Shown: positions 618 through 57,387, numbered from the stretch's first letter. The stretch is DNA of 64,000 bases from an uncultured Gammaproteobacteria bacterium (GCA_963793595.1 CAWCBX010000054.1:13943-77942); one strand, 5' to 3'. The notes: a model not told the origin generated them from the sequence alone. Numbers and translations: made by a program.

Positions 618-710
618 TTAATTCACTGGTCAAAAGCCCGGCATTATAACCAACTGGCGTTTTTTACTCATTCATTTTCCCGCCTTATTGTGTTGTGTTT
701 TTAACCCGCT

Positions 711-1241
711 ATGATGTCGCACATGCAAGATATCATCGGCCAATGGCTGCTTAGCCTCAAGCAATATATATTAATGTGCCTGCTGCTATCGAGCCCGGAA
801 CGCCTGCCCTACGGTGCCCATAGTATCGCGCTTACCGTTTTCAGTTATCTTCTGATCGGCTTGCTGCTAGTCGATGAGCAACGCAGCTACGCCATGGTTT
901 GTGCTCAGATCGCCCTGGAACTGGGAATGCTGGGACTGATCGCCTACGTCGGGCTACGCTGGAAGAAATTGCTGGCCAGGTTCCAGCAAACATTTTCAGC
1001 CCTGCTCGGGATCAACATGATCATCACCGCGGCCACGATACCGGTGTATCGCAGCGCGGTCAGTCACACAGACGGTACGGAGAATCTGTTAATCTACGTG
1101 ACCCTCGTTATCCTGATCTGGAATCTCGCGGTACTGTCGCTAATTTTTAAGCGTTCTTTCGAAATATCAACGCATCTTTCAGCTATGATATCGTTCAATT
1201 ATTTCGTGGTTTATCAATTCATCGTTATCTGGTTTTTCTAG
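711..1241 (+). CDS. hypothetical inner-membrane protein (no family recognised)
   Basis: 176 aa ORF with several hydrophobic helices (LTVFSYLLIGLLLV, IALELGMLGLIAYVGL, LIYVTLVILIWNLAVLSLIF). Its stop abuts the mpl GTG start. Confidence 0.55.
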   Translation: MMSHMQDIIGQWLLSLKQYILMCLLLSSPERLPYGAHSIALTVFSYLLIGLLLVDEQRSYAMVCAQIALELGMLGLIAYVGLRWKKLLARFQQTFSALLGINMIITAATIPVYRSAVSHTDGTENLLIYVTLVILIWNLAVLSLIFKRSFEISTHLSAMISFNYFVVYQFIVIWFF

Positions 1242-2575: not shown

Positions 2576-2584
2576 AATTCAGGT

Positions 2585-3895
2585 ATGTCTGAGAAATCAC
2601 AAAGACCTACAAAAATAGCCAAATATGAAATAAAACGTCGCATCGGACGCGGCGCTATGGGCGTTGTTTACGAGGCTTTCGATCCTTTCGTGCAGCGTAC
2701 CGTGGCTATCAAGGTTGCGCATTCAGCCAGTGACATGGATGACGCTACCAAACAAAAGCTGCGCGAGGGTTTTTTTGCCGAAGTCTATAGCGCAGGACGC
2801 ATGCATCACCCTTCGGTGGTAAGTGTTTACGACGCTGGACAGGAAGATGATCTCAATTACATCGTAATGGAATTCGTCGATGGGCAGACGCTGCAGGAAT
2901 ACGTCAGCGGAAATAGATCGCTCACCCCGAACCAGGTTGTCGATGTCATTTATCAGTGCGCCAAGGGTCTCGACTACGTGCACCGGGAAGGCATTATTCA
3001 TCGCGACCTGAAGCCGGGCAATATAATGCTCAGCAATGACGGCGAAGTAAAAATAATGGATTTCAGCATCGCCCATGTAGACGTAGGATTTGAAGGCCAT
3101 GATACCGAGGTACAGGGATCACCGATGTATATGCCGCCGGAACAATTGTCCGAGGAAAAACGCCTCGTCGCACAATCCGACATTTATTCGCTGGGCGCAG
3201 TGATGTACTCGTTACTGGCGAAAAAAACCCCTTACAAGGCGGGTAGTCTCGAGTCGCTGATTTACAAAATTACCAACCTCGAGCCCGATCCGATTATGGA
3301 AGTCAATCCCGAGGTGCCTCAACACATCGCCGAAATCGCTGAAAAAGCGATGCAAAAAATCATTTATGACCGCTACGATTCGGCTTACCTGTTAGCCAGG
3401 GACTTAAGTAATGCCTTTGGTCGGTTGCGTGGCGTGGGCGAACGTATTGACATGCAGGAGAAATGGAAGACACTGCGCTTTCTCGCCTTTTTCAAAGACT
3501 TCAGTGACGATCAGATTACCGAGGTTGTCAATGCCAGCGAGTGGAAGGAATTCAGCAAGGGCGAAGTCATTGTTACCGAGGGTGAGCAGGAAACCGCGTT
3601 CTACATCATTGCCAAGGGTGGCGTAGAGGTTAAAAAGAATGAAAAGGTTGTTGGTATTATGAAACAGGGCGACTGCTTTGGCGAAATCGCTTTCCTGACA
3701 CGCCAACCACGCAACGCGACCATTGTCGCGCGCACCGACGTTTCATTAATGAGTGTGAGCAACTCCCTGATGGAGCAGGCTTCCACTGAAACCCAGTTAC
3801 GCTATTATCGTATCTTTCTCGAAAACCTGATTGCACGACTCTCGCAAGCCACTGACAAACTGGTAGAAGCCGATAAAGAAATCACCGTCCTATGA
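2585..3895 (+). CDS. Hanks-type Ser/Thr protein kinase fused to a C-terminal cyclic-nucleotide-binding domain
   Basis: Kinase motifs are GRGAMGVVYEA (G-loop), VAIKV, HRDLKPGNIML (catalytic loop), DFSIA (DFG variant) and SPMYMPPEQ. The C-terminal cNMP phosphate-binding cassette is FGEIAFLTRQPRNATIVA. The stop overlaps the ubiX ATG (ATGA at 3892-3895). Confidence 0.85.
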   Translation: MSEKSQRPTKIAKYEIKRRIGRGAMGVVYEAFDPFVQRTVAIKVAHSASDMDDATKQKLREGFFAEVYSAGRMHHPSVVSVYDAGQEDDLNYIVMEFVDGQTLQEYVSGNRSLTPNQVVDVIYQCAKGLDYVHREGIIHRDLKPGNIMLSNDGEVKIMDFSIAHVDVGFEGHDTEVQGSPMYMPPEQLSEEKRLVAQSDIYSLGAVMYSLLAKKTPYKAGSLESLIYKITNLEPDPIMEVNPEVPQHIAEIAEKAMQKIIYDRYDSAYLLARDLSNAFGRLRGVGERIDMQEKWKTLRFLAFFKDFSDDQITEVVNASEWKEFSKGEVIVTEGEQETAFYIIAKGGVEVKKNEKVVGIMKQGDCFGEIAFLTRQPRNATIVARTDVSLMSVSNSLMEQASTETQLRYYRIFLENLIARLSQATDKLVEADKEITVL

Positions 3896-7056: not shown

Positions 7057-7105
7057 CGCGTTTCAGAGGAGTCGTTTTCGTGCGCACACTATACAATAAA
7101 ATCCA

Positions 7106-8662
7106 TTACGAAGATTGATTGCGAATTTCGAATCGCTTCGCCACAACCAAAATCAGAACCAGCACCGGTAAGCCGAGAAGCGCGGTAAACAGGAAGAAAC
7201 TCGGGTAACCGATCGCGTCAACCATCGATCCCGAGTAACCACCCAGCACCTTTGGAATCAAGGTCATCATTGAGCTGAAAATTGCGTACTGCATTGCAGT
7301 GAACGATACATTGGTCAGGCTCGACAGGAAGGCAACAAACGCGGCGCTGGCGATTCCTGCCGCCAGATTATCAGCCGATATCACAACGTAGAGCCAGACA
7401 ATGTCGTAGCCGATGCCAGCCAGTAACATGAACAATAAATTGGTCGCCGCAGAGAGTACTGCACCCAACAGTAATATACGCATGACCCCGAAACGCAGCG
7501 CGAGCAAACCACCGATAAAACCGCCGGCGATGGTCATCAACAAGCCGAAGGTTTTGGCGACGCTCGCGATCTCGGATTTGCTGAAACCCATATCCTGGTA
7601 AAACAGGTTCGCAATTACCCCCAGTACAATATCGGAAATACGGTAAAGTCCGATCAGTGCGAGCAGTATCCAGGCCAGCGACCAGCCATAGCGGCTGAAA
7701 AAATCGCGTATCGGCACCAGATAGGTATTCTCGACCATTGCGTAACGTACCAATCCCGCTTTCACCAACAAAATAGACATGACCCAGGCAGCCAACAATG
7801 CCATTGATAGTCGCACCGACTCCACGAAAAATGCGGACAAAAAACGATTGGCGACAAGATCGGTAAGCTGAGCCTTCGATACAGCTGCTAGCTCACCTGA
7901 GAAATAATATGTTCCGACCAATCCGCCCACCACAAAAGCGAATAGCAGGACAAACCTCAGGTAGTCCTGATTACTTTCGAGGTAATTTGTATAGTTCGGA
8001 TTTTCTGGCTCGTTGATCACCAGGGTTGTAACCACACCAACCAGCATCGCGGCTGCCATCAGACAATAGGTCCATTGCCAGGCCTGATAGTTATAGGTGC
8101 CCATGCTAGTACCAAACCAGTCGGCCAGGTAGAGCGAGCCCGCTCCGGCTACCAACCAACCGATTCGGTAGCCGGCGATGTAAGTCGCCGACATCATCGC
8201 CTGTAACTCGATTTCAGCTGACTCGATGCGGTATGCATCGATAACAATGTCCTGTGTCGCCGATGAAAATCCCAGCATGACAGCGGCCAGCGCCATCATC
8301 GTCAGGCCAGAGCCACCCGCCTGTGGATCGATCGAAGCCATCAGCAGGATGGCACAGGCAATCGCGATTTGTGCCAATAGCATCCAGGCACGGCGCCTGC
8401 CCAGTAGTCGGGTTAACCACGGCAGCGGTAGTTGATCGACCAGCGGAGCCCAGACAAATTTAAACGAGTAGCCTAATCCGGCCAGGGCAAAAAAAGTAAC
8501 TACTGACTTTTCAAACTCGGCTTCTCGTAGCCATATACCTAACGAACCAAAGATAAGCAGGTAAGGGAGCCCGGCAGAAAACCCGAGAAACAGCATCGTC
8601 ACCACCCGTCGGTGGAAAAACATTTTCAGCATGGTGGACCAGCTGCCGGTATCAGTCTGCAC
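7106..8662 (-). CDS. ampG: AmpG-family muropeptide MFS permease
   Basis: 518 aa polytopic MFS protein with LFLGFSAGLPYLLIFGSLGIWLRE near the N-terminus. The start is uncertain: GTG at 8662 or ATG at 8632. Confidence 0.85.
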   Translation of the reverse strand: MQTDTGSWSTMLKMFFHRRVVTMLFLGFSAGLPYLLIFGSLGIWLREAEFEKSVVTFFALAGLGYSFKFVWAPLVDQLPLPWLTRLLGRRRAWMLLAQIAIACAILLMASIDPQAGGSGLTMMALAAVMLGFSSATQDIVIDAYRIESAEIELQAMMSATYIAGYRIGWLVAGAGSLYLADWFGTSMGTYNYQAWQWTYCLMAAAMLVGVVTTLVINEPENPNYTNYLESNQDYLRFVLLFAFVVGGLVGTYYFSGELAAVSKAQLTDLVANRFLSAFFVESVRLSMALLAAWVMSILLVKAGLVRYAMVENTYLVPIRDFFSRYGWSLAWILLALIGLYRISDIVLGVIANLFYQDMGFSKSEIASVAKTFGLLMTIAGGFIGGLLALRFGVMRILLLGAVLSAATNLLFMLLAGIGYDIVWLYVVISADNLAAGIASAAFVAFLSSLTNVSFTAMQYAIFSSMMTLIPKVLGGYSGSMVDAIGYPSFFLFTALLGLPVLVLILVVAKRFEIRNQSS

Positions 8663-11175: not shown

Positions 11176-12746
<1,571 letters not shown>

Positions 12747-13952
12747 TTAACGGTGGGCGCAAGTATAGCGCTCGATAATTAAATCGATAAGCTGTTTCGC
12801 GATTTCAGTTTTACTCGCATGCTCGATACTTTGTCGCCCTCCAGGCCAAAAAACCTCGAGCTGGTTAAAATCGATTTCAAATCCACTGCTGCTATCGCCA
12901 ACCTGATTGGCCGCAATCATATCGAGGTTTTTCTGCTTCAGTTTGCCCAGCGCATATTTTTCCAGTTGCCGGGTCTCCGCAGCAAAACCAACACAGAACG
13001 GGCGCTGCTCGAGCGCACTAACCGCAGCCAGGATATCGACGTTGGGGACCAGTTGCAGCGACATCGAGTCTGCCGATTTTTTGATTTTATGGTCTGCAGT
13101 CTGATCCACCCGGTAATCTGCAACCGCGGCGCAGGCAATAAAAATATCGCTCAGTATTGCCTGCCGCATCACCGCGTCATACATTTGCTGCGCCGACTCA
13201 ACCGCTACCAGTTGCACACCTTGTGGTGCTGCTAAAGCTACCGGGCCACTGACCAGGGTTACGCTTGCGCCCTCTTTCAGCGCGGCCTCGGCGAGGGCAT
13301 AGCCCATCTTGCCCGAACTGCGATTGCTAATATAACGCACCGGGTCAATGGCTTCCCGCGTCGGACCCGCGGTCAGCAATAATGCGACCCCATCGAGTTT
13401 TCCGGGCATAAAATGCTGCGCAACCTTATTTACCAGTTGCCCGGGTTCAAGCATGCGTCCCGGACCGACATCTCCACAGGCCTGCTCACCATCGGCCGGC
13501 CCCCACACCAGCACATTGCGGGCGCCAAGTTGATTTATATTGTCCCGGGTCGCCGCATTAGCGAACATTTGCTGATTCATCGCGGGTGCTACCGCAACCG
13601 ACTGCTTGCTCGCGAGGCACAATGTCAGCAGCAGGTTATCGGCATAGCCAGCATTCAATTTACCGAGAAAATTTGCCGACGCCGGCGCTACCAGCAACAG
13701 GTCACACCAGCGCGCGAGTTCAATGTGATCCATCGCCGAGTCGGCTTCGGCATCGAACAGGTCGCTGTAAACCCGATGACCACTAAGCGCCTGGTAGGTC
13801 AGGGGCTGCACAAATTCCTGCGCCGACGGCGTCATCACCACGCGCACCTCGGCACCCGCCTTGATCAACAGGCGCAGCAGCTCGGCGGCCTTGTAGGCGG
13901 CGATACCGCCGGTAACCCCGAGTAAAATTTTCTTGTTGATGAGTGTTTGCAT
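12747..13952 (-). CDS. coaBC: bifunctional phosphopantothenoylcysteine decarboxylase / phosphopantothenate-cysteine ligase
   Basis: I prefer the ATG at 13952 (MQTLINKKILLGVTGGIAAYKAAELLRLL). Also PAMNQQMF and SSGKMGYALAEAA. Confidence 0.9.
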   Translation of the reverse strand: MQTLINKKILLGVTGGIAAYKAAELLRLLIKAGAEVRVVMTPSAQEFVQPLTYQALSGHRVYSDLFDAEADSAMDHIELARWCDLLLVAPASANFLGKLNAGYADNLLLTLCLASKQSVAVAPAMNQQMFANAATRDNINQLGARNVLVWGPADGEQACGDVGPGRMLEPGQLVNKVAQHFMPGKLDGVALLLTAGPTREAIDPVRYISNRSSGKMGYALAEAALKEGASVTLVSGPVALAAPQGVQLVAVESAQQMYDAVMRQAILSDIFIACAAVADYRVDQTADHKIKKSADSMSLQLVPNVDILAAVSALEQRPFCVGFAAETRQLEKYALGKLKQKNLDMIAANQVGDSSSGFEIDFNQLEVFWPGGRQSIEHASKTEIAKQLIDLIIERYTCAHR

Positions 13953-14668: not shown

Positions 14669-16859
14669 CGGAGGTTTCGAACCAGCTAGCGACCTGCTCG
14701 ACCTCTAGCGGGCGGCTAATGTAGTAACCCTGCACGTGGTCGCAATTCATTTCAGCGAGCAAATCGAAAACCGCAAGCGTTTCGACGCCTTCGGCAACGA
14801 CTTTCAAATCAAGGGTATGCGCGAGCTCGATGGTCGCCCTGACGATCAACTGATCATCCGGATTGCTGACGATATCGCGTACGAACGACTGGTCGATCTT
14901 GAGCTTTTCGACAGGTAACTCTTTCAGGTATGTCAGCGAGGCCTGGCCGGTTCCGAAATCATCTATCGACAATGACAGACCCATCACGCCGAGATGCGAG
15001 AGAACTTCGATCACTTCGCCGGGTTCCTGCATAATCTGCCCCTCGGTGATCTCGATAACGATCTGCGCGGGTTTGATCTGGTACTGCTTTAAACAAGTTT
15101 CGATACGTTCAGGCAGACGACGGTCATGCAAATCAATCATCGACAAATTGATGCCGACCGCTATGTCACCCAGGTCAGATTGGCTAATAAATTGACAGGC
15201 TGATTCGAAAATCCAGTTGGTTAGCGGTTTAATCAACTGATTTTGTTCGGCCAGACGAATGGTTTGATCGATCGAGACATCGTGCTTGTCCGGGTCCTTC
15301 CAGCGCAACAGGGCTTCGAGGTAAACGGTGGCATAGCTCTGCAGATCGACCACCGGCTGAAAAACAAGCTTGAGTTCATCGTGGTCGATCGCGCGACGCA
15401 GCTCCTGAATCATCGTAAATCCGGACGTGTCAGCTGTCTCATCGGCATCGCGGAAGAACTGGATGGGCCAATCGCTGCTCTTCGCCCCAACCAGGGCGCT
15501 ACTGGCATTCTGGTACAGGCCAGCGGCGTCAACCGCATGATCAGGATAAAGCGCAATACCGAAAAAGGCGCTTAACACAAACTCACGCCCGTGGATCTGG
15601 TAGTGCCGCGTAATCGCCAGGTAAATTTTTTCGACCAGTGTATTGAGTTGATCCCGCTGCTGCACTTCCAGCAATATCGCAAACAGGTTTCTTTCAAAAC
15701 GGGCGACTTGATCACTCTCGCGTAAAGATTCACGCAGGCCTTCGCCAACCTGCCTGAGCAGTGCATCTACAATGTACTGACCGCGTTGCTGCACGAAATC
15801 ATCCAGACCGTGAATATCTATCATGATCAGCGCATATTTCCGTCCATTGCGCTTGCCTTCGAGTATCGCCTGCGACAGCCGGTCTTCAAAAATGACCCGA
15901 TTGTTAAGACCGGTCACCGGATCACGCTTGGCCATTTTTTGCAGCACCTTGAAGTACTCGCCCATTACTTTCAACCCAGGCCTTATTTCACTGGCAGTAC
16001 CGGTATCGCTGTCCTGTTGGCTTTTCGCGGCACGCCGCATTTTCTCCGCCAGTTCCTGCAACGGCCTGATCAGATTCAGGTGTAATAACGCCAGTACCAG
16101 GACTGCAGCACATAGCAGTATCAACAACACGACCGAAGCCTGCCGTTCGAAAAGTTCCCAGAAAGATATCGGGTTCAGTTCCAGATGCAGTTCACCAGCC
16201 ACGGCATCTGTTTCCCCGACCGGGATAATTATCTGCTTGCCACGATTACCGCTAGCACTGAATTCCTGGTACTGAATGCCTTGCTGGGTATCGGCGGCAT
16301 GCTGCAGCCTGCGCCCGGACAGGAATGAAAACTCATTGAGAAAATCGAAATAGTCCATGCTCACTAGCAGCACTGCCGCGTTGTCGTCGGTCGTAACGGG
16401 CCCCGCAATTTCGAGTAAGGCTTTATCGTCGATACGGCAACTCGATATCCGTGGCACCAGGTAATCATCGAAATCCTGCCGAAGCATCTGCCCAGGCTGC
16501 AGGCAACCGGGTTTTTTCGACCTGGAAACTGGCTGACCCTGTTGATCGAATTGCACCAGGTTGACCGCCCAGATGCTTGGATTACGCTGGTAGTAATCCC
16601 AGAGAAAAGACTGGAAATTGTGCTTGCCGGCAGGCGATTTCGCCAGCGTGTTGAGCAGGTAATACTGCGACTGCAGCCATAGTTGCTGCTTTTGTTGAAG
16701 CTGCAGGATCTGAGCATGCAGATTCTGCTGCACGGTTACCGCAGTTTGCTGGTTCTGCCGATCGACCAGAACCATTAGCGACAGGCTCCACAGAATGAAC
16801 ATCAGCAGACTTAGACCCGTTACCAGGATCACGCTGAAATTCGAGATATTGAGTTTCAT
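14637..16859 (-). CDS. membrane sensor protein with a degenerate GGDEF domain and an intact EAL phosphodiesterase domain
   Basis: 740 aa with an N-terminal TM, a periplasmic region and a second TM. The GGDEF position reads [12 protein letters not shown] (GGDEF replaced by ERNLF). EAL motifs are intact: [47 protein letters not shown]. Confidence 0.85.
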
Positions 16860-33255: not shown

Positions 33256-33971
33256 TGTTGATATATATTATTATGCGATATTGTCGACGGAAGGGTAAAT
33301 GTTGACGACCAATGCGATCAGCAAAGGAGCGAACTTTCAAGCGTCAGCAGAAAGTTCTGCAGTTCTGAGAAAATCTCTCTCTAAACAGCCAAATCTGCAA
33401 ATCAGGGCGCGCGGCGAGGGGCACCCGGAGTCTGAGAGCAAGTAGTACGGGCCGCCGCGCCGTGAGCGAGCCCATGCCTACTCGTACTACCGGTAGCACT
33501 CTCTTCTAGATCTTCTATTAGACATGACGCCATGCACCGGTGCTGTCAACATGCTTAGCCACTGGCTGTTGTAAAGAAAGAATTGACTTTCCGTGGGCAA
33601 GCGGCATATGTATGTGCTCCTAAGAGCATGGAGAGTACGATATGACCAGCTTTGGTCACCATCGCTGCTCTGTGGGCGAGCGGGAGGAGCCCGAAGTGAC
33701 CCCATGGTGGAGGGTTTTGGGGCTTGATAACCCGGAGAGGGAGGGACGGTCGCGCTATAACCCCAACCTGTAACGTGCGTCGTAGATACACGTCCAGGAT
33801 CAGTACTATCAGTGGTTGGTTGTTGTAATTGTGAGGTACTCGCCAGGAGTCCTAACACTGGCTGTCACACGCAGTGATAGCGGCAGCCGTACCTCAGCTG
33901 ACTCCTTGTCAGCATCACTTCTTGCTCTGCGACCAATGGTATGCGCGGCAATACCATGCACTCTCGTTACA

Positions 33972-33984
33972 TCCCCCTTTCTTT
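33972..33984 (-). other. candidate polypurine tract of the gypsy element (AAAGAAAGGGGGA on the minus strand)
   Basis: A purine run lies immediately 5' (element sense) of TGTAACGAGAGTGCA. The same 15/16-mer recurs at the 5' break of Pol (39231-39246). There is no second LTR to confirm boundaries. Confidence 0.3.
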
Positions 33985-34771
33985 AAGTGGCTAACTGTAA
34001 AGGGTAGGAGTATCCTTCGGTGACCAGCAAAGGGTAACACAGGACCCCTCAAACCTTGGCCATGTCAGGTGTCTCCTCAGAGGATGACGATTCAGGTCCC
34101 CTATTGCTTCAGCGTTGCTCAGTGTAAAAGTAGCGGTAACTAAGCCCTGTTTCCCTTTCAGCCCGTGGAATCAAACCTGTGGCTTACTTGATTACGTGGC
34201 TACTTAGTTCCATACTAAATTTTCTTTAGCGCGGCGTTCACGATAGCTTCTCAACGTACATCTACAACAACCCTGTAGGTTCAAGGCGGTGAGCCAGGGT
34301 GATCAGTCCCGACCCGTGTCCTTCTAGTCCAAACAGTCCGCACCCCCGTACGTTACGAGGTTGCCTGTAGAAATAAATACTTAAAACAAAATAAAAGTAT
34401 ATAAAAGGACTTAATATTTAAACATGTTGTTAGATGACTTGAGCAAACAATACTTGAACTGGTGCATAAATTGGAGGCGTGCGTCGTATTCGTATTCGTA
34501 TGTAATGAAGTTCAAATTTCTCTAAAAGAAATGAGAATCGGCTGGTAGGATTCTACCGTGCGTGCAAGGGATAACCTGATTAATCGTAGTACGGTCTATT
34601 CCCTGTTCGTCTAAGATGATCTCTAACTGTCTCCAGATGTCATTGTCGATGAGATTATTGCGCGTAGTAGCTCTCGTGGATGTAGTACTTGTACGTGTGC
34701 TTGCTGGCACGCGCTGAATGGAGAAGTTAAACGGTCCTAGTAATCTATCGTCGGCGATGTTGATGTCTTCT

Positions 34772-37700
34772 TCACGCCAGACGAAGAGTCCTTGGTTTTG
34801 CTGGAGAAATCGGAGTGTTCGTATCTGGAGAGACGGCCTGGCGCTTGTCGAGCGCGCCGGCATTTGTGACTTTGCGAATCTCGGGCCAATAGCGACAGTT
34901 GCGCGTAGGATGATCTTCGGCTTCGCGCAAGTGCTTGTCCCAAAATCTACATCTGTACACGCCGTAGTCGCGCATAGCGACACCGTAGGATCTTGTAGGT
35001 TCGGCTTGTACTAAACGCCATGTCTCAGTAGCAGCGTCGTTCTCTTTGTAACGGATGAAGAATAATCGGTCGGATGACTCGTCGATAGCTCGACTAAGAT
35101 TCTGTAGCGCTTTCTTCTGTAGACGGGAGACTTGCTTAGGGGGGTAATTAGCGGCTTCCAGCTCGGCAAGTTCTTCAAGAGTAAGAGGGTCATCTAGCGT
35201 GGAGGCTTGCTCTTCGCCCTGTTCTCCGTCTCTAGTTTCTACGTCGCGAAACCATGCGCTTTGCGGTAGCTCTCTTAGCGTAGTTTCTAAAGTAGATTCG
35301 TCCTGGTCGTCTAGAGTATCGTCTTGATCTTCCTCATTCTCGCTGTCTTCATCGCTTGATGGTTCTTCTACTTCGTCGTCCCAGATGGAGGCTACTTTTT
35401 CAAAGGCGTAGTTTTCATCTTGGTCGGCCTTGACGTACTTGCCGCGTTCAGTAACGCGTATCCAGCGCTCTAGAGGGTTGCTTACGAGTGGACCGTTCAT
35501 GGAGGCGAATCTCGTGTCGGCTCCGTCGACTAACTTAGGGAAGACTACAACTGAGGGTATCCTTTCCATGCGTGCGGCCTTCTCTTTCACTCGACGACCT
35601 GGTCGGCCTAAGCCTCTAGTAAACGGTATACGTTGAATAATGTACGATGAAGGAGAATCGGCTTGCTCAAGGACGCGATACGGGCCTCGGGCTCTGAAGA
35701 CTAATTTGGCGCTAATGCCGTCTTTGGTGCTAGATTGCACTCGCTTGCGAACTAAGACTATGTCTCCGGGGGAGAATACTCTGGCGCGCTTGCCTTCATT
35801 CTTGTATTCTCGGTGGCGTCGTCTTCTCTCGGTGACAAGAGTAGAGAATATCTCTCGTTGCTTTAACATAAAGGGGAAAGTAGAGTTCATATACTCTAGG
35901 AGTTGTTGGCCTCCTACAGTACTTTGCTCTGCAGAAGTAAGCGGTTTAATGTCGATGGGGAAGGGAAATTCTCTGCCGAAAGCTGGTATACATCTAGGGA
36001 TGTCAGTACCGTCGACGGCGTCGGCGTTCCATGCGTAGATAGCGAAGAATACGCCTTGTACCCACTTATGGAGTGAACCGGTATCGGCAGTGTTAATAGT
36101 TTCTACCTTATTAAGGTATCGGTGGAAACGTTCGTTACGCACAGCCTTATGATTCTCTCTGGATACTGCTACTACAGGTATGAGCATCTGTGTAAACACT
36201 TGCTTGAAGAATCCGGCGAACTTGTTGTCGGCATCTACATAGATTACATGAGGTATTCCTACTTGAAGGAAGACTTGAAAAGCTGCTTGTAGGAGTCTTT
36301 GGGTAGTTATACCCTTACCTAAGAATTGAGGTATGCAGGCTCCGGTGAGCTCGTCGCAGTAAGTAAGTAGTTTTTGATCTCCTTTAGTGCAGTCGGGGAT
36401 ATCGCCTGGATCCCAGAAGTCTAAGAATACTGCGTCCCATGGATTAGTAGACTCTAGTTCGTGTAGGATTTCCATAGTTTCGTGGGAAGTGTTATTCCCG
36501 AATCTGCAATAGAGGCATGCTCGTACTAGGTTCTCGATGTCACGACGGACAGACGGCCACCAGAATCTAGCAATGACTCTGTGTGTAGTTCGTTGAATAC
36601 CACTATGGCCGGCAAATGGAGACGTATGACATGCAGCCATAACTACGTGTTGGAGTTTCTTGGGGACTACTTTAACCTTTAACTGTCTGGTTCTAGAAGA
36701 GTAAGGTAGGTCAAAGTGGTACAAGATACCATTTTCGTACGACAGTCGGTCCTTGTCATATGCATCGGCGTAGCGGCGGTCGTGAAGTTCTCCTACAGGA
36801 ATTTTATCGCTTTTAGCCTGTAAGTGGCGGATAAGAACTTGACAATCGTGGTCTAAGGCGACGGCTTCCTTCCATTCGTTCTCGGTAGGTAGAGGGAGTG
36901 TGATAGCTGGGTTAACTTCGCCTAGATAAGTATTAATCATGGCTTTGTCAACGTTATTGATAGCGTTTACCTCTGCCGTATAAAGGGCGAATGAGATTGC
37001 TTCGAAGGCTTGGCGTCCTGGAAGAGTTCTAACTCGGGGGAGCCAGGTTTCGCGTTCAGTATTAAGTAGCGCGACGGCGCGATTTGGTCCTATGCCTAGG
37101 CCTCGTAGTAACTCGTGGTCTCGAATTGGTCGGCAACAAGCCGGTCCGGGTGTTTTATTCCCGATCCAAATTCCGAACGTGCCGTGGAACAATGGTGAGT
37201 CTGGCTTGACGTCTTGAAGCGCCGGTCCAGGGTGCTTAGAAGAATAAGCAGGCTCGCCTCGTTGACTAGAAGGGGCAAGTCGTGGAGAGACAAAACGTAC
37301 TACTTCGGCTCCGTTGGTATGCATAACTGCTTTGTCGACTGGTGTAGCTAGCGGCATAGTTGCTTGAAGGTCTTTCATAAGAAGGGCGTCTGATACATCA
37401 TAGACCGTATCCATGACCTCGAGCAATTGCGGTGTCCACTCGGTAGAGGGTGTACTAGGGAATGTGAACTTGCTAGTAACAATAGATGGCAGTAGCGTGA
37501 ACACTTGGTGCTTGGAGTCTATCCATCCTCCATGACTGGCGTTGCTAATGGAGCTAGAGATGAGCTTCCAATCGGATGTCATGAAACTAAGCTGGGTTAA
37601 GCGCTTGGAGACGATAGGTCTAAACTCCGGGCACATAAGTACAACGGCTTGAAGATCGCAAGTCTTCACAGCGAACTCGGCGATGCTAGCTACCTTGGCT

Positions 37701-39245
37701 AGCCAATCTTGTAGCTGTTTACTCGGTGATCCTATATTTAACGGTTTTGAGTAAGGGTAGACTGCAATCATCCAGTCTAGTAGGAGAGGAGGCGTTGGGT
37801 TATCGCTAACGTGCTGCATCCAATCGCTTGGTAGTACGGAAGGGAAATCCGCATTGAGTTCCTCTGCTAAACCTTTACGCTCATGCTCCAACCGTATGAT
37901 GTTGGTAGCGGCTAAACCAACGGCGTTGAAGGCTTCTGAAATGGGTGCGCCTAATGCATCTACTAGCAGTAGACTTCGTTGCTTGCATGCAATGTACTCC
38001 GGTGTTCTACGTGCATTCTTGGTAGTAGCTTCGCCGACGAAGCATACTGGCGGTAATACTTGAAGCGGAAAAGTAGGCTTAAGAGATGTGTCTTCCTCTA
38101 TCTTTAACATTTGAAGGTTAATAGTAGACAGTGGAACGACGCTCTCCATAGGCTTGTTGTTCCAGGGAGGTATACGGGACATGTGGTTGCGCTGGCTAAA
38201 CCAGGCGGGAGCGTTAGAGATACCTCGGTGCGAGCTAGGTTCACTTGACACTAACGGGGTACCAATGACCGCGCTTCTGGTTTCGGCTTGCGCTTGAAAG
38301 AAATCAGACTCGTCGTAACCAGTCATGTCGCGCCAAGAGTACAGGTAGTCAACTTCGGTACTGCTGTTTGTAGGGCTAATTAGACCTAAATTAACTGGTA
38401 CTATCGATGTACTTGGTGGTGGTAGAGGAATGGCTGTGGCGGTAGTAGCTGCAGCTAGCTCGTTGGCGTTCGGAAATTGTTGCTGTTCGTGTCCGTACAG
38501 GCGTGTGTACTCTTCCCACTGTCGGTTGTATCTGGAGAGAGCGTCGCATTCCGTCATCATTCTGGCGGGTCTATGTTCGAAACGGAAGTTGTAACATAGT
38601 AGCTCGGCTCTCCATCTACTAAGTTGGTGGTTAGGTGAAATCTCGTCGCCTGGTTGGGGGTCGAAAAACTTGCTTAGTCCTGAGCAGTCGCCTAAAAGTA
38701 AGAACTCGGTGCCCATCAGGTACCGGTGACATTTACGAATCGCCCAGCGAACGGTGGCGGCTTCACCTACATAGCTATGGGCTGACGTTTCGGCCTTAGT
38801 AGTGCAACGCCTACTACCGAACATAACTGGTCGAAGTCTTAGGCCATTAATAGTTCTATCGAAGTTGCTCTTAGGTAGCTTAGTATGCAAAGTACCGTCT
38901 TGCGATATCTTGGCGATGCGCTGCTCTTCGGCGATGCTTTCTGGAGAAGAGTCCGGTTGACATAGAGCGAAACCCATACCTAATCGGCACCAATCCGTTT
39001 TTAACACGAAGAGACGGTTAGGGTCCGGTCTAGCTAACGGCGGTCCTGAAAGAATAAACTGCTTGAGGCTATCGAAGAGTTCTTGCTCTTTGGACGTCCA
39101 GAGCTCTTTCATACGTTTAACCTCTTCTTCCAGAGTACATTCTCCTGGGGCAGGTTGCTTGGCTAGGACTTCACGCCACGGGATGATTTGCATCTCATAA
39201 CTCGGTATATGTTTTGAGTAGAAACCGAGGTGCACTCTCGTTACA
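34772..39245 (-). mobile_element. Ty3/gypsy-type LTR retrotransposon Pol, 5'-truncated (RT connection/RNase H, ~340 aa extra domain, integrase); no gag, protease or RT palm
   Basis: 1487 aa ORF. It begins YSKHIPSYEMQIIPW...LARPDPNRLFVLKTDWCRLGMGFALCQ (RT thumb/RNase H). The integrase HHCC finger is HTSPFAGHSGIQRTTHRVIARFWWPSVRRDIENLVRACLYC. The D,D35E core is FLDFWD...YVDADNKF...NERFH. The order RNase H then IN indicates gypsy-type. An overlapping frame (34522-34983) may extend the C-terminus. Confidence 0.85.
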
Positions 39246-39560
39246 TTTCTTCAAAATATCTGCCCTGGCTTTTGCTACTCGGCGACAGACTTCAATTTCT
39301 TGAAGAGTCGTGAACGTTTGGTTGCCAACTTTTGCCTCGCGTGCCTTTTCGGATTTGATCAGATATTTGGCACGCATATTGGTATACATGGAAATAACAG
39401 CCTCGTATATCTTCTGACTCGTTTCTTCCTCACATGATATATCATACATACAGGGACGAAACAACTCTTCATACAGTTCTTTGCTTTCAACCAGGGTGCG
39501 CTCGATTACCTTGAAGAGGTCACCGCCGTATCGGGCAAAGCCTCGCTGGTTGCCGTGCTT
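39246..39560 (-). mobile_element. fragment of a second, divergent copy of the transposase C-terminal region carried by the 40.3-46.3 kb transposon
   Basis: Minus-frame translation ...ESKELYEELFRPCMYDISCEEETSQKIYEAVISMYTNMRAKYLIKSEKAREAKVGNQTFTTLQEI aligns by eye with ...TDGALYKQFLGCDKTTTVPEATRKEMYFRLCEHAVHARFRENVKTYSEQ...SNLTFRAQLAE of ORF 44272-45138. There is no ATG, and it ends exactly where the gypsy sequence begins. Confidence 0.4.
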
Positions 39561-49223: not shown

Positions 49224-51029
49224 TCATTCAGCTGCCTGCATTTGCAAAAATGCTTGCTTCATGTCATCCATCTGTTCTTCAAGATATTGAACCCTGCTCC
49301 TCAGCATAGATATATAGTACGCCATTGCTACGACGACGAGAGATATGATAATTACATCGTAATGCAGAAACGGCGTTCTAGCTGGGGTGGAGACAGCTTC
49401 AGTGGCTGCCAACGAGGTGTTCTTTTCCTCTACTGAGGCGGCTTCAGCTGACTCGGCCTTTTTCTCGCCTAAAGCGGACGCAACCATGTCCAAGTATTTG
49501 GTGTACATTGTGGTGTACTCTTGCTTTGTGTTGGAGTCAATCAGTTTCTTGAGCATTGTACTCTTCGAGTAGTGCACCTGGAAAAGGACCGTCATTGTTA
49601 CACCGCCAGAATCACTGGGTTCAATCATCCACATATCCTCAACATGGAAAGCATCTGCGGCAGGAAATCCCTTCCCATACGTGCATGACTTCAGAAGCAG
49701 ACCATGTCCTCGTATAAAATGACAGAATTGATGCTTCTCCATGGCTGCCGACGATGGTCCGAGCTTATGCTTGAGAGGATGACGAAACTTTATAACTCTC
49801 TTGTCGCCACTGTATTCTCCGCATTCAGCCCAGCTTTCAACTTCTAGCTCAAAGTCGCCGATTCGTGATGTTTGGAACTTGCCAAATGCAAAGGGTGCAT
49901 CATCTTTGAGGAATTTGTCGTGAAATGAATCCAGATTGCACGATAGATGAACGTTATCTAACGCAGTCTCCTTGAGCTTCTTTTCAGTAAGGGTCGACCA
50001 AAGCTGCGCTGGAGCTTCTGCTGCAAGAGGTGCTTCGATCATGTCATCTAGATGGTGTTGCTCCTCTTCAGACAGCATCTCATGATCCGATGAGGCTGAT
50101 TCTGACTCTGCCGTATCAAATTCACTCATACTAATTCTATCGAAAGTATCTACGGATTTAGACCGGAGACGTCTGTGATTCTTCTTTCTACGTTTGCTGT
50201 TCCGTCTCGTCTTGGGCCACTTCATCGATTGTGATGCATCGCTTAAAGTTGAGAAGGATTTGAGCCGGTCAGTCACGCTCGTGCCACCGCGTGATGCTAT
50301 GGCACCGCTTTCGTCGGAATAAGATTTTCGAAGGGCATCGGCATCGGCCAGAGCCAGGCCGACAAACGTTGCCGCCTGCGCAGAAGGAGCCATGGCACCG
50401 GCACCAAAAGCACCAAAGGAGGAGCTTGCCGGTGTAGATCTACTATCCGACCTCGATGCACTCGTATTGTTGTTGCTAGAACCCGCACGTGCGGAATGTA
50501 ATCGACCAATGATATCATACACTACATCTCGATCATTGAACGATCGAAAGTTGTGATCCAAGCCAGCGCTGTCCTTGACGCAAATGCCGCTGTTCTTGAT
50601 TTTCGACACACGCGTAATTTCCGTCAATCGAAGGATGTACTTGCTTTCTGATCCGAATAGATTGGAATAGAAACATATGGCATTATTTGCGAGGTACAGC
50701 CGACCGCTGTTGCGCTTGTAGCTGCACGAGTAGTCCCCTACGACTGATCCGATGGCTGGACCGAAGAGGGCTCGAACGATTTCTGTAGTGTATAGTGATG
50801 CCGATGCCGCCGAATTTGCCTTATTCCTGCCGCTGATTGGTTTGGCGGCATCATCATCGCTGATCGTGCATGATGGATCGTTGTCAGCACGAGAACTGGA
50901 AAGGGCCAAATTATTTTCCTTCTCTCCATCGGATGTGCCAGTGCCGCCGAATACATCTTGTGACCACGAAACGTTGAGGCCAGCGGCTTCCTGCCTGGTG
51001 TCGCCGCTGGAAAAGGCTCTGGCTCTCAT
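49224..51029 (-). CDS. GRAM + VASt domain lipid-transfer protein (Lam/Ltc/GRAMD1-Aster-like) with a C-terminal TM anchor
   Basis: ATG at 51029. GRAM region LYLANNAICFYSNLFGSESKYILRLTEITRVSK. VASt-like region FHDKFLKDDAPFAFGKF...RVIKFRHPLKHKLGPSSAAMEKHQF...VTMTVLFQVHYSKSTMLKKLIDSNTKQE. TM segment VIIISLVVVAMAYYISML. Confidence 0.8.
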   Translation of the reverse strand: MRARAFSSGDTRQEAAGLNVSWSQDVFGGTGTSDGEKENNLALSSSRADNDPSCTISDDDAAKPISGRNKANSAASASLYTTEIVRALFGPAIGSVVGDYSCSYKRNSGRLYLANNAICFYSNLFGSESKYILRLTEITRVSKIKNSGICVKDSAGLDHNFRSFNDRDVVYDIIGRLHSARAGSSNNNTSASRSDSRSTPASSSFGAFGAGAMAPSAQAATFVGLALADADALRKSYSDESGAIASRGGTSVTDRLKSFSTLSDASQSMKWPKTRRNSKRRKKNHRRLRSKSVDTFDRISMSEFDTAESESASSDHEMLSEEEQHHLDDMIEAPLAAEAPAQLWSTLTEKKLKETALDNVHLSCNLDSFHDKFLKDDAPFAFGKFQTSRIGDFELEVESWAECGEYSGDKRVIKFRHPLKHKLGPSSAAMEKHQFCHFIRGHGLLLKSCTYGKGFPAADAFHVEDMWMIEPSDSGGVTMTVLFQVHYSKSTMLKKLIDSNTKQEYTTMYTKYLDMVASALGEKKAESAEAASVEEKNTSLAATEAVSTPARTPFLHYDVIIISLVVVAMAYYISMLRSRVQYLEEQMDDMKQAFLQMQAAE

Positions 51030-52530
51030 GGTGGCGATACTGTAAAGAGCGAGTGCTTGCTCTGCTACTAGTACGGTATGTAGAGAGAGTAGATCTACTC
51101 GGACCAAGGTGCCGCCGCTCAGAGGAGGTCAGGGTGCACGTAATGTAAACAAGCAGACGGTGCGCAGGCGCTAGGCGGCGGCTGTGGCTTCGCTTCATGC
51201 TTCGCCGCTCGTTCGGCTTTTTCCCGACCTCAAAAAATCGATCGCACACACGGCACGGCGGCGGCGGGCGCGCGCGCGGCGCGGCGCGGCGCGGGCGAGG
51301 GAGGGTAATCTCGGTATTTGACACGGCGCGCTCGCGAAACTGCCAAGAAAAGGAAACACATGCAACACGCTAATCGTGCTAAGAGCTATTAACAAGGTTG
51401 TCTACCTGAGACCTTCGTACCTGTTAATCGCTATAACTTAATAGCTCGGGTTACGCAGTATGTACTAGGAGACTTTGACTGAGAGCAAGACAGTTTCGCT
51501 CCCCTAATTGCGTTTCTCCGCTGCTTTGAGCTGCGTCATCTACTACACCTAGTAATACGCCTCATATTCGACATCTCAGTCGGGGTTGCGCGTGCCGCGG
51601 GAGTGCGCTGGATGCCGAAAGCCAGGCAGAGCGAATGGCCGTGGGGCGCCCGTCAGTATCTCAGAGCTGTACTACGCAGACAATTCCTCTGACTGCTAAT
51701 ACTAGAAGGTGCACCAGATTCTGGATCTAGCTATGCTGCGTAGCGTCGCAGTATCGTCAGCGATACTACCGTCGTAGTTGGATTGACGCTACTGAAGTAC
51801 GACGGGCTGCTGCTTCTCTTGGCACCTGCGTGGCTAGCCGTCGACGGGAGCGTCTGGTGACCTGGTTTCCGCTCACCCTTGTGGCACGCCGTAACCACTA
51901 GAGTAGGCGAATGAATCGAATCTGAGTAATGTCATCATCAAAAGAACGCAAGCCGGCCAGATCTACTCAAATCCCCTGCTTTGACTACCTACCTTGGTCG
52001 CAATCTCGAATATCTTTGCGGTGACAGCAAGTCAAGTGATGGGTGACAGCGCGGTGCGGTGACGAACGCGAACGAAGACGACCGCCACCATCGAGAGCCG
52101 AGCGCGAGAGCCACCCTGAGACAACCTTCCCGACCTTCCACCTTCTGAAGTAAAGCAAAAGTGAAACTTGTAAGTGGGCACGAAGCGTCTATGTCGTGAG
52201 GCTTGGTAAAACGCTGTTGTTTGTTCGTTGGGATCAGCGGGTGTCAATGAGATATGATTTCTCTCTCTAGAGAGACGCATCTTGTGTGTTTTGGCGCAAA
52301 TAGGAAAAGTAAATGATTGGTTGATGTTTGTTTTTGATGGACCTTCTGCCATCCTGGCATAGCAGCTTGCGTGGATTTATGTGGACCGGTGATGGTTCAA
52401 CGTTGGCGGGGGGGGGGCTTATCGAACACCTCCTCGTCGCACCGCTGGCCTTGTGGTACAACCGAGGAAATCCGTCTTTTCCCATTTTTTTGGATTTTGT
52501 GTCCTCGCATTCTTATTTTATACGTGTAAC

Positions 52531-53541
52531 ATGAATCGTAAGGACAACAAAACTAACTCTATCCTCGCCATTTCTACTGCCACCGCTATTTGCTATTTAA
52601 TTCATTCATACCTCTATCCTAAAAGAAAGAACGACAAAATGGAGGGACTTACCAAGCAAGTTGAGGGAATTACCAAGCAGGTAAAGGGTGCTCTGCACCT
52701 TTCCAGGCCCGCCGGTTCGTCCACAGGCAACCCACCCAAGGAAGGCGAGCGCAAATACCTCATCGGTGGTAACTGGAAGTGCAACGGTACCGTCGCCTCC
52801 CTCACCGAGCTTATCGACACCTTCAACAAGGCCGGTCCCATCCCCGCCAACGTTGAGGTTGCCGTCTGCGCTCCCTTCATCCACATCCCCCTTTGTCTCT
52901 CGAAGCTCCGTGACGACATTGCCGTCGGTGCTCAGAACTGCGGCGTCAACGAGAAGGAGGGTGCCTACACCGGCGAGATCTGCGCCTCGCAGCTCAAGGA
53001 CATCGGCGTCGAGTGGGTCTGCATTGGCCACTCCGAGCGCAGGGAGGGCTTCGGCATGGCCGGTGAGGACAGCGACCTTGTTGCCAAGAAGGTCAAGGTC
53101 GCCCTCGATGCCGGCCTCAAGGTCATGTTCGCCATCGGTGAGAAGAAGGAGGAGCGTGAGAACGGCACCACCAACGACGTGTGCGCTCCGCAGCTTGCCC
53201 CTGCCGCCAAGCTTCTTGAGGAGAAGGACTGGGAGAACGTCGCCATCGCCTACGAGCCTGTTTGGGCCATCGGTACTGGTCTGACCGCCACCCCTGAGAT
53301 GGCTCAGGAGACCCATGCCTTCATCCGTAAGTGGATGAGCGAGAATGTCAGTGAGGCTGTTGCCAAGGCTATCCGCATCCAGTACGGAGGCAGCATGAAG
53401 GGCGCCAACGCCAAGGACTTGCTTGCCCAGCCTGATATTGACGGCGGTCTTATTGGTGGAGCCTCTCTCAAGGCTGACTTCTTCAATGTCGTCAACGGGC
53501 TCCCTAAGAGGAGTAACTTCATCTTATCTTTGGTAAGTTAA
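52531..53541 (+). CDS. TPI: triosephosphate isomerase with a ~75-aa N-terminal extension
   Basis: The core runs from KYLIGGNWKCNGT with CAPFIHIP, VCIGHSERR, IAYEPVWAIGTG, IQYGGS and LIGGASLK. There is strong GC3 codon bias. The first in-frame ATG is at 52531 and an alternative is at 52639. Confidence 0.9.
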   Translation: MNRKDNKTNSILAISTATAICYLIHSYLYPKRKNDKMEGLTKQVEGITKQVKGALHLSRPAGSSTGNPPKEGERKYLIGGNWKCNGTVASLTELIDTFNKAGPIPANVEVAVCAPFIHIPLCLSKLRDDIAVGAQNCGVNEKEGAYTGEICASQLKDIGVEWVCIGHSERREGFGMAGEDSDLVAKKVKVALDAGLKVMFAIGEKKEERENGTTNDVCAPQLAPAAKLLEEKDWENVAIAYEPVWAIGTGLTATPEMAQETHAFIRKWMSENVSEAVAKAIRIQYGGSMKGANAKDLLAQPDIDGGLIGGASLKADFFNVVNGLPKRSNFILSLVS

Positions 53542-56269: not shown

Positions 56270-56715
56270 AGATCTACATTACATGTAGTCGTCGCCGAGA
56301 GACGTGTGTGCCGAGAGGACGAGGACATGCATCATCGGCGTTCGGCGCAGTTGATCTCTCTAGACAAACTAACCGGCCAGTACGCGGAACCATGAAGGTA
56401 AGAGCGCCGCCGTATCTGTTGTCGTCTGTTGCCGTACGAAGCGGGGCGTGCCCCAGTACCAGGTAGAGGGGGCGTAATACATGTAGTGTTGGTTGCATTA
56501 TTGAATGAATGAAATGTCTTCGCGTCGAGTTCTAGAGTCGTCGAGTCGAGTCGAGTCTATCTAGATCTAGTCTGCAGCATCGCATACATGTCTGTATGTA
56601 ATGCCCATATGTTCAATGTACGAGCTCGTAGGTATCTTTCGCCCCGGGCTTTTCTGTTCCTCCGATAATCAATTTCTCACATGACATATCCATCCCATGC
56701 CCTTTACGTAAGCAG

Positions 56716-57387
56716 ATTATTATTGTTTCCACCTCTGCTCCAGAGCTTGCTGGCCACAAGACCGGGTTGTGGCTCGAAGAATGTGCCGCTCCTTACTACA
56801 AATTCAAGGAGGCGGGATATGACGTTGAGATTGCGTCTCCATCCGGCGGGCCCGTCCCCCTTGATTCTGCTTCGCTAGGGGAAGCGTTCCTCACCGACGC
56901 GTGCAAGAAGTTCTTGTTCGATCCTGAGGCGATGGGTATGCTAAGTCATACTAGCAAACTTTCTACTGTAGACTTGGCTGCTGTCGATTCGATCTTTTTC
57001 TGCGGTGGTCACGGCACCTGTGTTGACTTCAGTGACGATGCCTCGATCAAGAATGCCATCGAGACTTTGTATGGTGGAGACAAGGTCGTTGCAGCCGTCT
57101 GTCACGGCCCGACGTGCCTACCACAGTGCGTCAAGCCGGGCAGTACCGATCCTCTTGTCAAGGGCCTTACCGTCACTGGTTTCACTGATACGGAGGAGGC
57201 GGCGGTTCAGCTGACGGAGAAGGTGCCCTACCTGTTGGAGAAGAAGCTCAGGGAGCAGGGGTGTAATTTTGAGCGTGCCGACGATTGGCATCCCAAGGTA
57301 TGCGTTGATGGTAAGCTCGTCACTGGGCAGAATCCTCAGAGCTCTGAGTCATGCGCTGAAGCTGTCATCAAGATCCTGACGGCCTAG
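56716..57387 (+). CDS. DJ-1/PfpI (class I glutamine amidotransferase-like) family protein; 5' exon not resolved
   Basis: IIIVSTSAPELAGHKTGLWLEECAAPYYKFKEAGYDVEIASPSGG...FFCGGHGTCVDF...AVCHGP...VTGFTDTEE...VTGQNPQSS. The conserved frame is open upstream to 56716 without an ATG. A speculative model has exon 1 at 56601-56627 (MPICSMYEL) and an 88-nt GT..AG intron at 56628-56715. Confidence 0.8.
   Translation: MIIVSTSAPELAGHKTGLWLEECAAPYYKFKEAGYDVEIASPSGGPVPLDSASLGEAFLTDACKKFLFDPEAMGMLSHTSKLSTVDLAAVDSIFFCGGHGTCVDFSDDASIKNAIETLYGGDKVVAAVCHGPTCLPQCVKPGSTDPLVKGLTVTGFTDTEEAAVQLTEKVPYLLEKKLREQGCNFERADDWHPKVCVDGKLVTGQNPQSSESCAEAVIKILTA

Follow-up and report, generated by a model that had tools for sequence, protein, structure and literature searches.

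A predicted C5-methyltransferase fold without its catalytic residues in the Pol protein of a Ty3/gypsy retrotransposon in diatom DNA

What occupies the long segment that separates RNase H from the integrase zinc finger in the Pol protein of a Ty3/gypsy retrotransposon, where no known domain is recognised? The question is raised by an element on the minus strand of a 64,000-nt stretch of DNA (hereafter the window) deposited under the name of an uncultured Gammaproteobacteria bacterium (GCA_963793595.1, CAWCBX010000054.1:13943-77942). An earlier note on this DNA, made by eye, had claimed a gap of about 650 residues, and had read into it the motifs of a C5 cytosine DNA methyltransferase (DNMT) that was either inactive or highly diverged. 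We compared the segment with its homologues in metagenomes, predicted its structure, and examined how it is maintained. The parts of Pol that frame the question are as follows.

34772..39250, minus strand: Pol open frame, 1492 residues from stop to stop, with the end of reverse transcriptase (RT), RNase H, a linker, the DNMT-like domain, integrase and a C-terminal module
38591..39100, minus strand: RNase H, Pol residues 51-220 (PF17919, E 2.7e-15; PF17917, E 6.6e-11)
38003..38590, minus strand: non-conserved linker rich in Ser, Thr, Pro and Asn, Pol residues 221-416, without Pfam match
36917..38002, minus strand: predicted C5-DNA-methyltransferase-fold domain without catalytic residues, Pol residues 417-778, from homologues, AlphaFold2 and Foldseek
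36503..36667, minus strand: integrase H2C2 zinc finger, Pol residues 862-916 (PF17921, E 3.5e-17)

A recurrent domain between RNase H and integrase

A Pfam search of the window Pol recognised RT_RNaseH_2 and RT_RNaseH at residues 51-220, Integrase_H2C2 at residues 862-916 and, weakly, SH3_Tf2-1. The distance from RNase H to the zinc finger measured approximately 640 residues, close to the figure claimed, and no family was matched within it, even at E<=10. A phmmer search with Pol residues 256-855 against a library of 1.84 billion representative proteins returned 66 homologues from ENA, JGI and Logan metagenome assemblies, with a best E value of 2.7e-42 and 14 values below 1e-10. Their alignments begin only at Pol residues ~383-423, which marks the first ~130-160 residues of the query as a linker peculiar to the lineage and rich in Ser, Thr and Pro; the conserved domain covers ~340 positions. 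Its bounds (residues ~417-778, nt 36917-38002) were set from the homologues and the structure model. They enclose the segment that had been singled out by eye (36971-37984, Pol residues 423-760), here extended by one C-terminal helix.

The domain lies just upstream of the integrase zinc finger in four long Ty3/gypsy Pols, P0005 (1862 residues), P0041 (1933 residues, with the domain at ~736-1065), P0047 and P0062. It follows RNase H in P0005, P0041 and P0062, while P0047, which is cut at its 5' end, holds at most a C-terminal remnant of RNase H; RT is present in two of the four. The order expected of a Ty3/gypsy element is seen throughout, with RNase H and integrase in the window copy and RVT_1, RT_RNaseH and Integrase_H2C2 in sequence in the relatives. 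A word-indexed homologue search found the window protein itself only, the same kind of search with the family alignment added one fragment, and a scan of metagenome contigs yielded no confirmed relatives. Thus, the segment is a genuine domain, encoded in frame within a retrotransposon open reading frame (ORF) and recurring across copies. For the analyses below we used an alignment, A3, of 42 sequences, consisting of window Pol residues 415-790 (376 residues) and the domain cut from 41 homologues.

Predicted fold and fate of the methyltransferase motifs

AlphaFold2, run on A3, produced a model with a mean predicted local distance difference test score (pLDDT) of 88.8 and a predicted template-modelling score (pTM) of 0.87, in which 251 of the 376 residues reach 90 or more. 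When the PDB was searched with this model using Foldseek, 152 matches were obtained at E<=0.001, and the best 50 of these 152 are all C5 cytosine methyltransferases. Crystal forms of M.HhaI gave E values of 4e-11 to 5e-09 at a probability of 1.00, with target-normalised template-modelling scores of 0.61-0.69 and alignments of 354-372 columns out of 376, the target-recognition lobe included. M.MpeI, a prophage methyltransferase, a C5-carboxymethyltransferase, Dnmt2, MET1, DIM2, DNMT1, DNMT5, M.HaeIII and ZMET2 also appear in the PDB top 50. Among the top 50 matches in the viral database BFVD, nearly all those that carry a name are cytosine methyltransferases, from giant viruses, phages and ranid herpesviruses. 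No DNMT3 structure, a type that does not carry a large target-recognition lobe, is found among the top 50 PDB matches, and no Dam-type adenine methyltransferase among the top 50 of either database.

The model shows both lobes of the C5-methyltransferase fold, namely a class I Rossmann catalytic lobe and, placed between motifs VIII and IX, a target-recognition lobe. On this evidence the domain very probably has a conserved, non-canonical DNMT fold, and the predicted structure indicates that it descends from a C5 DNA cytosine methyltransferase or at least shares its full two-lobed fold. The proposal of an inactive or highly diverged C5-DNMT fold is thus supported by the quality of the model and by a best Foldseek E value of 4e-11, with matches almost exclusively to C5 enzymes and not to another fold.

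Sequence comparison detects this relationship faintly at best. The highest score in the family against PF00145, whose gathering cut-off is 22 bits, belongs to the domain of P0062 (17.2 bits, E 0.0036), of which residues 121-310 run colinear with profile positions 119-299; weak as it is, PF00145 is the only sub-threshold Pfam match in the family. Comparing the family with a DNMT alignment, hhalign reported a sole and equally weak match (positions 252-306 on 261-309; P 0.027, probability 1.8%). It places 'Y-D-x-x-x-P-A-P-S-I … C-R-P-I-R-x-x-E-x-x-x-x-L-G' on 'W-D-x-P-S-P-T-L … R-x-L-S-x-x-E-x-x-x-L-x-G-F-P', which is motif IX, and, weakly, the stretch YSSKHPGPAL on the DNMT 'WD.PSPTL' block. When the window sequence by itself was compared with an alignment of seven bacterial DNMTs the hhalign probability was 0.1%, and global hhalign was uninformative. 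Against PDB sequences phmmer returned noise only, and hmmsearch with the family profile only a 34-residue noise match. A six-frame search of the assembly with PF00145 gave no match, whereas DNMTs were detected in this way in 8 of 41 related genomes and in 9 of 14 controls. The check by profile and by structure that the earlier note had proposed was decided in its favour by Foldseek; PF00145 stayed below its cut-off and hhalign did not exceed 1.8%. Taken alone, the sequence-only searches would have led us to dismiss the finding wrongly, and both the family alignment and the structure prediction were needed.

Motifs were assigned from the secondary structure of the model, column counts in A3 and the established motif order of M.HhaI. 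Model residues are numbered 1-376, and the Pol number is the model number plus 414.

Motif I: strand beta1 (SLLLVDA) with the following loop and helix A; G/D-A-x-(G/A/T)-x-P, no GxG, Pro in 16/19
Motif II: end of beta2; acidic residue, E or D, in 18/21
37748..37777, minus strand: motif IV, DWMIAVYPYS, Pol residues 492-501, after beta4; consensus D-W-x-x-A-V-Y-(P/T)-x
37622..37648, minus strand: motif VI, AVVLMCPEF, Pol residues 535-543, on beta5; ENV replaced by x-Pro-x, Pro in 22/24
37499..37543, minus strand: motif VIII, NASHGGWIDSKHQVF, Pol residues 570-584, on a hairpin; N-x-x-H-G-G-x-I-(E/D)-(T/S)-x-H
37142..37486, minus strand: equivalent of the target-recognition domain, ~115 residues, Pol residues 589-703, forming the small lobe
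37091..37135, minus strand: motif IX, CRPIRDHELLRGLGI, Pol residues 706-720; C-R-P-I-R-x-x-E-x-x-x-x-L-G
Motif X: start of the long last helix; P-G instead of G-N

All seven motifs that had been picked out by eye are present, each on the secondary-structure element where it is expected, DWMIAVYPYS being motif IV and CRPIRDHELLRGLG motif IX. Their order is I-II-IV-VI-VIII-target-recognition domain-IX-X. At the position of the M.HhaI Pro-Cys the window copy carries Pro-Tyr, Tyr replacing the catalytic Cys. None of the 20 members that cover this column has a Cys there (G, Q, A, R, Y and others are found), and the two stray PC dipeptides in the family both fall at non-homologous loop positions; a conserved G-(K/S)-x-D follows the motif IV equivalent. 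Neither EN nor ENV occurs anywhere in any member. The canonical N-A-x-x-Y-G-x-P-Q-x-R-x-R of motif VIII is replaced, with QxRxR absent from the family and, in model numbering, H159 (18/24), G160 (22/23), I163 (22/24), E/D164 (21/24) and H167 (21/24) standing out. The target-recognition lobe ends in a conserved G-x-P-x-Y-x-x-x-P-x-P and F-F-x-x-x-F-G-I-W, and motif IX is marked by C (25/31), R (23/31), E (25/29) and G (25/29). In model numbering the family-invariant residues are D78, W79, Y84, G93, P127, N156, H159, E164, H167, C292, R293, R296 and E299.

Hence Pro-Cys, ENV, QxRxR and FxGxG are missing from every member examined, and the family has its own conserved residues instead, almost all of which the window copy retains. 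The loss of PC and ENV that had been noted for this copy holds family-wide: copies that keep either were sought among the 20-odd members covering these motifs, and there are none.

Selection, copies of the element and host DNA

The replacement residues persist even where members are no more than 17-35% identical, while the adjacent linker is not conserved. We estimated selection from three pairwise comparisons of copies on metagenome contigs (L013, L014 and L015) over the C-terminal half of the domain, in which the proportion of nonsynonymous differences (pN) was 0.09-0.17 and that of synonymous differences (pS) 0.50-0.69, for an omega of 0.07-0.23. Synonymous sites are partly saturated, and omega is therefore, if anything, overestimated. 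Conserved replacement residues, low omega values and an intact relative with identical long terminal repeats (LTRs), described below, show that the domain is maintained under purifying selection and is not decaying. The term 'degenerate', applied to it in the earlier note, is consequently not apt.

The intact relative is a complete element of 9165 bp at positions 5119-14283 of contig L012 (ENA ERZ21939226 ctg1179l), bounded by 244-nt LTRs that are 100% identical. These run TGTAAC…GTTACA, with the same terminus as in the window, and are accompanied by a TGG primer-binding site, the polypurine tract AGAGGAAGAGGGGA and a GCAA target duplication. Between them lie a gag-like ORF of ~890 residues and an open Pol of 1933 residues (P0041) that contains the domain. 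The family looks to have been recently active, as judged from this copy. In L017 the LTRs (7084-7309 and 15937-16162) are ~90-98% identical, and the contig ends inside the 3' LTR; no LTR pair was found in L013, L014, L016 or L018.

Gag-like ORFs are also seen in other relatives and are unusually long, at 865-893 residues (L012 5292-7973, L016 1335-3932, L018 394-3030). In none of these three did Pfam find a domain, not even a zinc knuckle, nor did it recognise a protease domain in the N-terminus of Pol. The copies on L013 and L014, both from one sample of JGI metagenome 3300059803, are decayed, being split by frameshifts into several ORFs on the same strand; their DNMT-like domains nonetheless differ mostly at synonymous sites. 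The contig L017 carries, at 1-3602, Helitron-like (Helitron_like_N) and PIF1 helicase ORFs ~3.5 kb upstream of the family member, and L016 has a tandem array of ~300-bp repeats at 12300-13450, with units 83-95% identical, within DUF6748 genes beside the related element.

The remaining features of the window copy show in what condition it survives.

39231..39246, minus strand: 5' break, where the first 15-16 nt of the LTR (A/TGTAACGAGAGTGCA) run directly into the terminal part of the RT coding sequence
36668..36868, minus strand: N-terminal extension of integrase, Pol residues ~795-861, conserved in all relatives
34522..35137, minus strand: C-terminal module after integrase, conserved in relatives
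33957..33984, minus strand: polypurine tract AAAGAAAGGGGG, then the start of the 3' LTR (ATGTAACGAGAGTGCA)

Read on the element strand, the LTR remnant at 39246-39231 leads straight into the last RT motif (…LGFYSKHIP…), and the same LTR string recurs after the polypurine tract, at 33957-33972. The copy is without gag, protease, most of RT and most of the 5' LTR, and the sequence upstream of 39250 contains none of these Pol and gag domains, only debris of other transposons. This arrangement suggests that the missing parts were removed by a deletion or an aberrant strand transfer. Near 34.8 kb a frameshift falls inside the C-terminal module, whose …LLGPFNF… part runs on in another frame to 34522. 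The window copy is thus a dead element, 5'-deleted and with one frameshift near its 3' end. Further copies were also looked for; tblastn of the 3.8-Mb assembly with the whole Pol found the window copy only.

The N-terminal extension of integrase directly follows the DNMT-like domain and, with the linker, fills what is left of the gap. A profile that includes Pol residues ~795-861 matches the N-terminus of PFV integrase and residues 1008-1150 of Ty3 Gag-Pol. The C-terminal module, of ~140 residues, is common to five long Pols (window, P0005, P0041, P0047 and P0062), with the consensus …S-x-D-K-L-F-F-I-R-x…W-R-L-V-Q-V…G-x-Y-T-V-R-F…C-R-Y-W-P-E-I…G-P-F-D-F. It has no Pfam match, its AlphaFold2 model reaches a pLDDT of only 60.8, and Foldseek found nothing for it below E 0.2. 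A role as another accessory or targeting module is possible.

As to the host, a stramenopile had been guessed. A triosephosphate isomerase gene that shares the contig with the element (52393-53541, plus strand; Pfam E 1.6e-82; N-terminal extension of ~120 residues) has its best named relatives in diatoms, namely Triceratium (MMETSP1175; 82% identity), Odontella aurita (79%) and Epithemia (74%). Judged by this gene, the element lies in diatom DNA, in agreement with the guess. Three metagenome proteins are 90-92% identical to the window triosephosphate isomerase, and close relatives of the host diatom are therefore present in public assemblies. Two further host genes close to the element, both of ordinary eukaryotic kind, are a GRAM and VASt lipid-transfer protein (49224-51128, minus strand) and a DJ-1/PfpI family protein (56632-57387, plus strand).

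Possible roles and comparison with known systems

What might such a domain do? Every known C5-methyltransferase, the tRNA-methylating Dnmt2 included, requires the motif IV cysteine, and cytosine methylation is therefore not expected of this domain. We lean, with some reserve, towards a maintained pseudo-methyltransferase that is used non-catalytically, as a DNA-binding or targeting module together with integrase. A lineage of Ty3/gypsy elements would have built a C5-DNMT-fold domain into Pol between RNase H and integrase; with the Pro-Cys nucleophile, the ENV glutamate, the QxRxR arginines and the FxGxG loop replaced, it would no longer methylate cytosine, and the two-lobed, DNA-embracing cleft with its target-recognition lobe would be left for binding nucleic acid. 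Within the pre-integration complex the module could act with the adjacent integrase in target-site choice, in tethering or in binding the element's own cDNA, a role that would be analogous to that of the chromodomain of chromoviruses. The DNA-binding or targeting role, taken by itself, we put at about an even chance at best. A more specific version, in which Ty3/gypsy elements of diatoms and marine protists have turned a captured cytosine methyltransferase into a dead 'reader' attached to their integration machinery, whose base-flipping and target-recognition cleft chooses integration sites by sequence or CpG methylation, or shields the element from DNMT5 silencing, seems possible though rather doubtful.

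Several points weigh against the pseudo-methyltransferase reading. The evidence for the fold comes from one AlphaFold2 model built on one alignment, and inactivity is deduced solely from the missing canonical residues; that the domain is inactive, that it binds DNA and that it works with integrase are all inferences. The SAM (S-adenosylmethionine) ribose-binding acid at the end of beta2 is kept in 18/21 members and small residues form the post-beta1 loop, so that SAM could still be bound. Variable linkers flank the domain on both sides, and after protease cleavage it could go with the RT-RNase H product or with integrase. Finally, only the L012 element is complete with both flanks, too few to reveal an insertion-site preference.

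The retained beta2 acid also favours the view that the domain is still an enzyme, performing SAM-dependent methylation or another nucleic-acid modification without Cys or ENV, with His159, Glu164, His167, Cys292, Arg293, Asp78 and Tyr84 doing the chemistry. The same view draws on the post-beta1 loop of G, A or T followed by a conserved Pro, on the near-invariant new polar residues at the places of a DNMT active site and on the strong purifying selection, and it has precedents in the active DNMTs and DAMs known from retrotransposons (PMC5890265; 10.64898/2026.05.21.726589). However, no (D/N/S)PP(Y/F/W) motif of amino-methyltransferases follows beta4, the FxGxG loop is absent, and the cysteine on which all known C5 enzymes depend is gone. 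CpG is not depleted either: the observed/expected ratio is ~1.0 in both elements, which shows no footprint of self-methylation, weak evidence given that the copies are young. An active enzyme is, in our judgement, improbable.

To the same low degree we credit a decoy or regulator of host methylation in the manner of DNMT3L, which would blunt the methylation-based silencing of the element by attaching to host DNMTs or to the DNA on which they act. The fold is conserved without its catalytic residues, dead regulatory DNMT paralogues such as DNMT3L do exist, and diatoms silence transposons by DNMT5-dependent CG methylation (PMC9998398). On the other hand, Pol products are scarce and mostly inside particles, a poor fit for a stoichiometric inhibitor; the target-recognition lobe is complete, unlike that of DNMT3L; and the nearest structural matches are to monomeric enzymes of bacterial type and not to DNMT3.

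A functionless relic, left from a captured DNMT that was once active, serving as a spacer and simply degenerate in the window, is very improbable and largely refuted. The window copy is indeed dead, with its 5' deletion and frameshift, and all canonical catalytic motifs are gone, but a decaying relic was rejected on the conservation of the replacement residues at 17-35% identity and on omega. Moreover, co-variation in the family sufficed for a model of pLDDT 88.8, the intact L012 element, whose LTRs are identical, carries the domain, and the true linker (residues 221-416), which is not conserved at all, shows how a spacer looks in this Pol.

Kinship with something other than C5-methyltransferases, be it another Rossmann fold such as the Dam-like one of DIRS and DAM-LTR elements or a chance resemblance, is hardly credible, for although no member reaches the PF00145 cut-off, the assembly has no six-frame match, hhalign stays below 2% and an ochrophyte LTR element does carry a DAM between RT and integrase (10.64898/2026.05.21.726589), Foldseek aligns ~365 of 376 residues, target-recognition lobe included, at probability 1.00, all top 50 PDB and nearly all named BFVD matches are C5 enzymes, the motif order is that of C5 and not of Dam, and the only sub-threshold Pfam match is a colinear PF00145. 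A Dam-type adenine methyltransferase (MethyltransfD12) in particular was rejected, as it has no Pfam match, no structure in either top 50, no DPPY-type motif and the wrong motif order.

DNMTs carried by retrotransposons have been described before, as a recent and as yet limited part of the epigenetic conflict between transposons and their hosts. SymbioLINE-Dnmt and SymbioDIRS-Dnmt3 of Symbiodinium and KnitGypsy-Dnmt3 of Klebsormidium nitens were found with a PF00145 screen, keep their catalytic residues, and were active where tested, with CG methylation in yeast (de Mendoza et al. 2018, PMC5890265). The 'EpiLTRs' of Cymbomonas and Euglena carry a DNMT4-like domain reported as a bona fide DNMT in a 2026 bioRxiv preprint (10.64898/2026.05.21.726589). 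The hosts named in the earlier note, dinoflagellates and a charophyte, agree with the former study, but its list was incomplete, since it lacked Cymbomonas and Euglena. Neither publication mentions diatoms or stramenopiles as hosts of cytosine methyltransferase elements, and a comparable domain is absent from the diatom DNMT survey (PMC9998398) and from the GyDi paper (PMC2806351). Full-text literature searches turned up no LTR element for which a DNMT-like domain without catalytic activity has been reported.

The hosts known so far are thus dinoflagellates, a charophyte, a prasinophyte and Euglena, and all their elements were found by profile and look catalytically competent. Profile-based screens evidently miss at least one whole family, and structure-based searches of unannotated 'gaps' in Pol can reveal hidden modules. 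The present family indicates that a transposon can keep the DNMT fold after losing every catalytic hallmark, which would imply a non-enzymatic use. It also places such elements in diatoms, whose transposons are silenced mainly through the CG methylation set by DNMT5 (PMC9998398). Because an intact relative exists, its LTRs identical, both the steering of integration and interference with silencing are testable. Should the domain prove to be a 'reader' or a shield, no pseudo-DNMT encoded by a transposon would precede it, and mobile elements would have a new route into the host methylation system.

When compared with the known retrotransposon DNMTs, the family shares a C5-DNMT fold within a retrotransposon ORF, KnitGypsy and the EpiLTRs being likewise of Ty3/gypsy type, and it is similarly under purifying selection (Ka/Ks < 0.2 there, 0.07-0.23 here). 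It differs in falling below the PF00145 cut-off, in being without PC, ENV, QxRxR and FxGxG, in its large target-recognition lobe, in having its nearest structures among enzymes of the M.HhaI/M.MpeI type and not DNMT3, in its slot between RNase H and integrase, and in its diatom host. With M.HhaI and the bacterial and viral C5 enzymes of PF00145 it has in common the two-lobed fold, the motif order and a recognisable motif IX R..E...LG. Sequence identity is 12-13%, however (about 10-13% to real DNMTs at large), and the catalytic Cys, ENV, the motif VIII arginines and the glycine-rich SAM loop are absent; the domain is also part of a polyprotein, and not a restriction-modification or stand-alone enzyme.

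Mammalian DNMT3L and plant DRM3 offer a parallel for a DNMT-derived fold kept by selection after catalytic loss and put to non-enzymatic work. They are host regulators derived from DNMT3 and DRM, however, which have no large target-recognition lobe and bind active paralogues, whereas the domain described here is encoded by a transposon and is not DNMT3-like. Among mobile elements, DAM adenine methyltransferases occur between RT and integrase, the slot used here too, in some LTR elements, one of them from an ochrophyte (10.64898/2026.05.21.726589); the slot is therefore permissive, but the folds differ, being DNMT here and Dam-type there. GyDi (Maumus et al. 2009, PMC2806351) is, like the present element, a diatom Ty3/gypsy retrotransposon with the order protease, RT, RNase H and integrase, but was described without an extra domain. 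Chromoviruses, too, have a Ty3/gypsy Pol with an additional chromatin or DNA module beside integrase; theirs is a chromodomain fused to integrase, whereas for the domain reported here a targeting function is only presumed. Overall, the domain is fold-level kin of the C5-methyltransferases and a putative functional analogue of the accessory chromatin modules of transposons, one that departs from the enzyme family in both sequence and catalytic residues.

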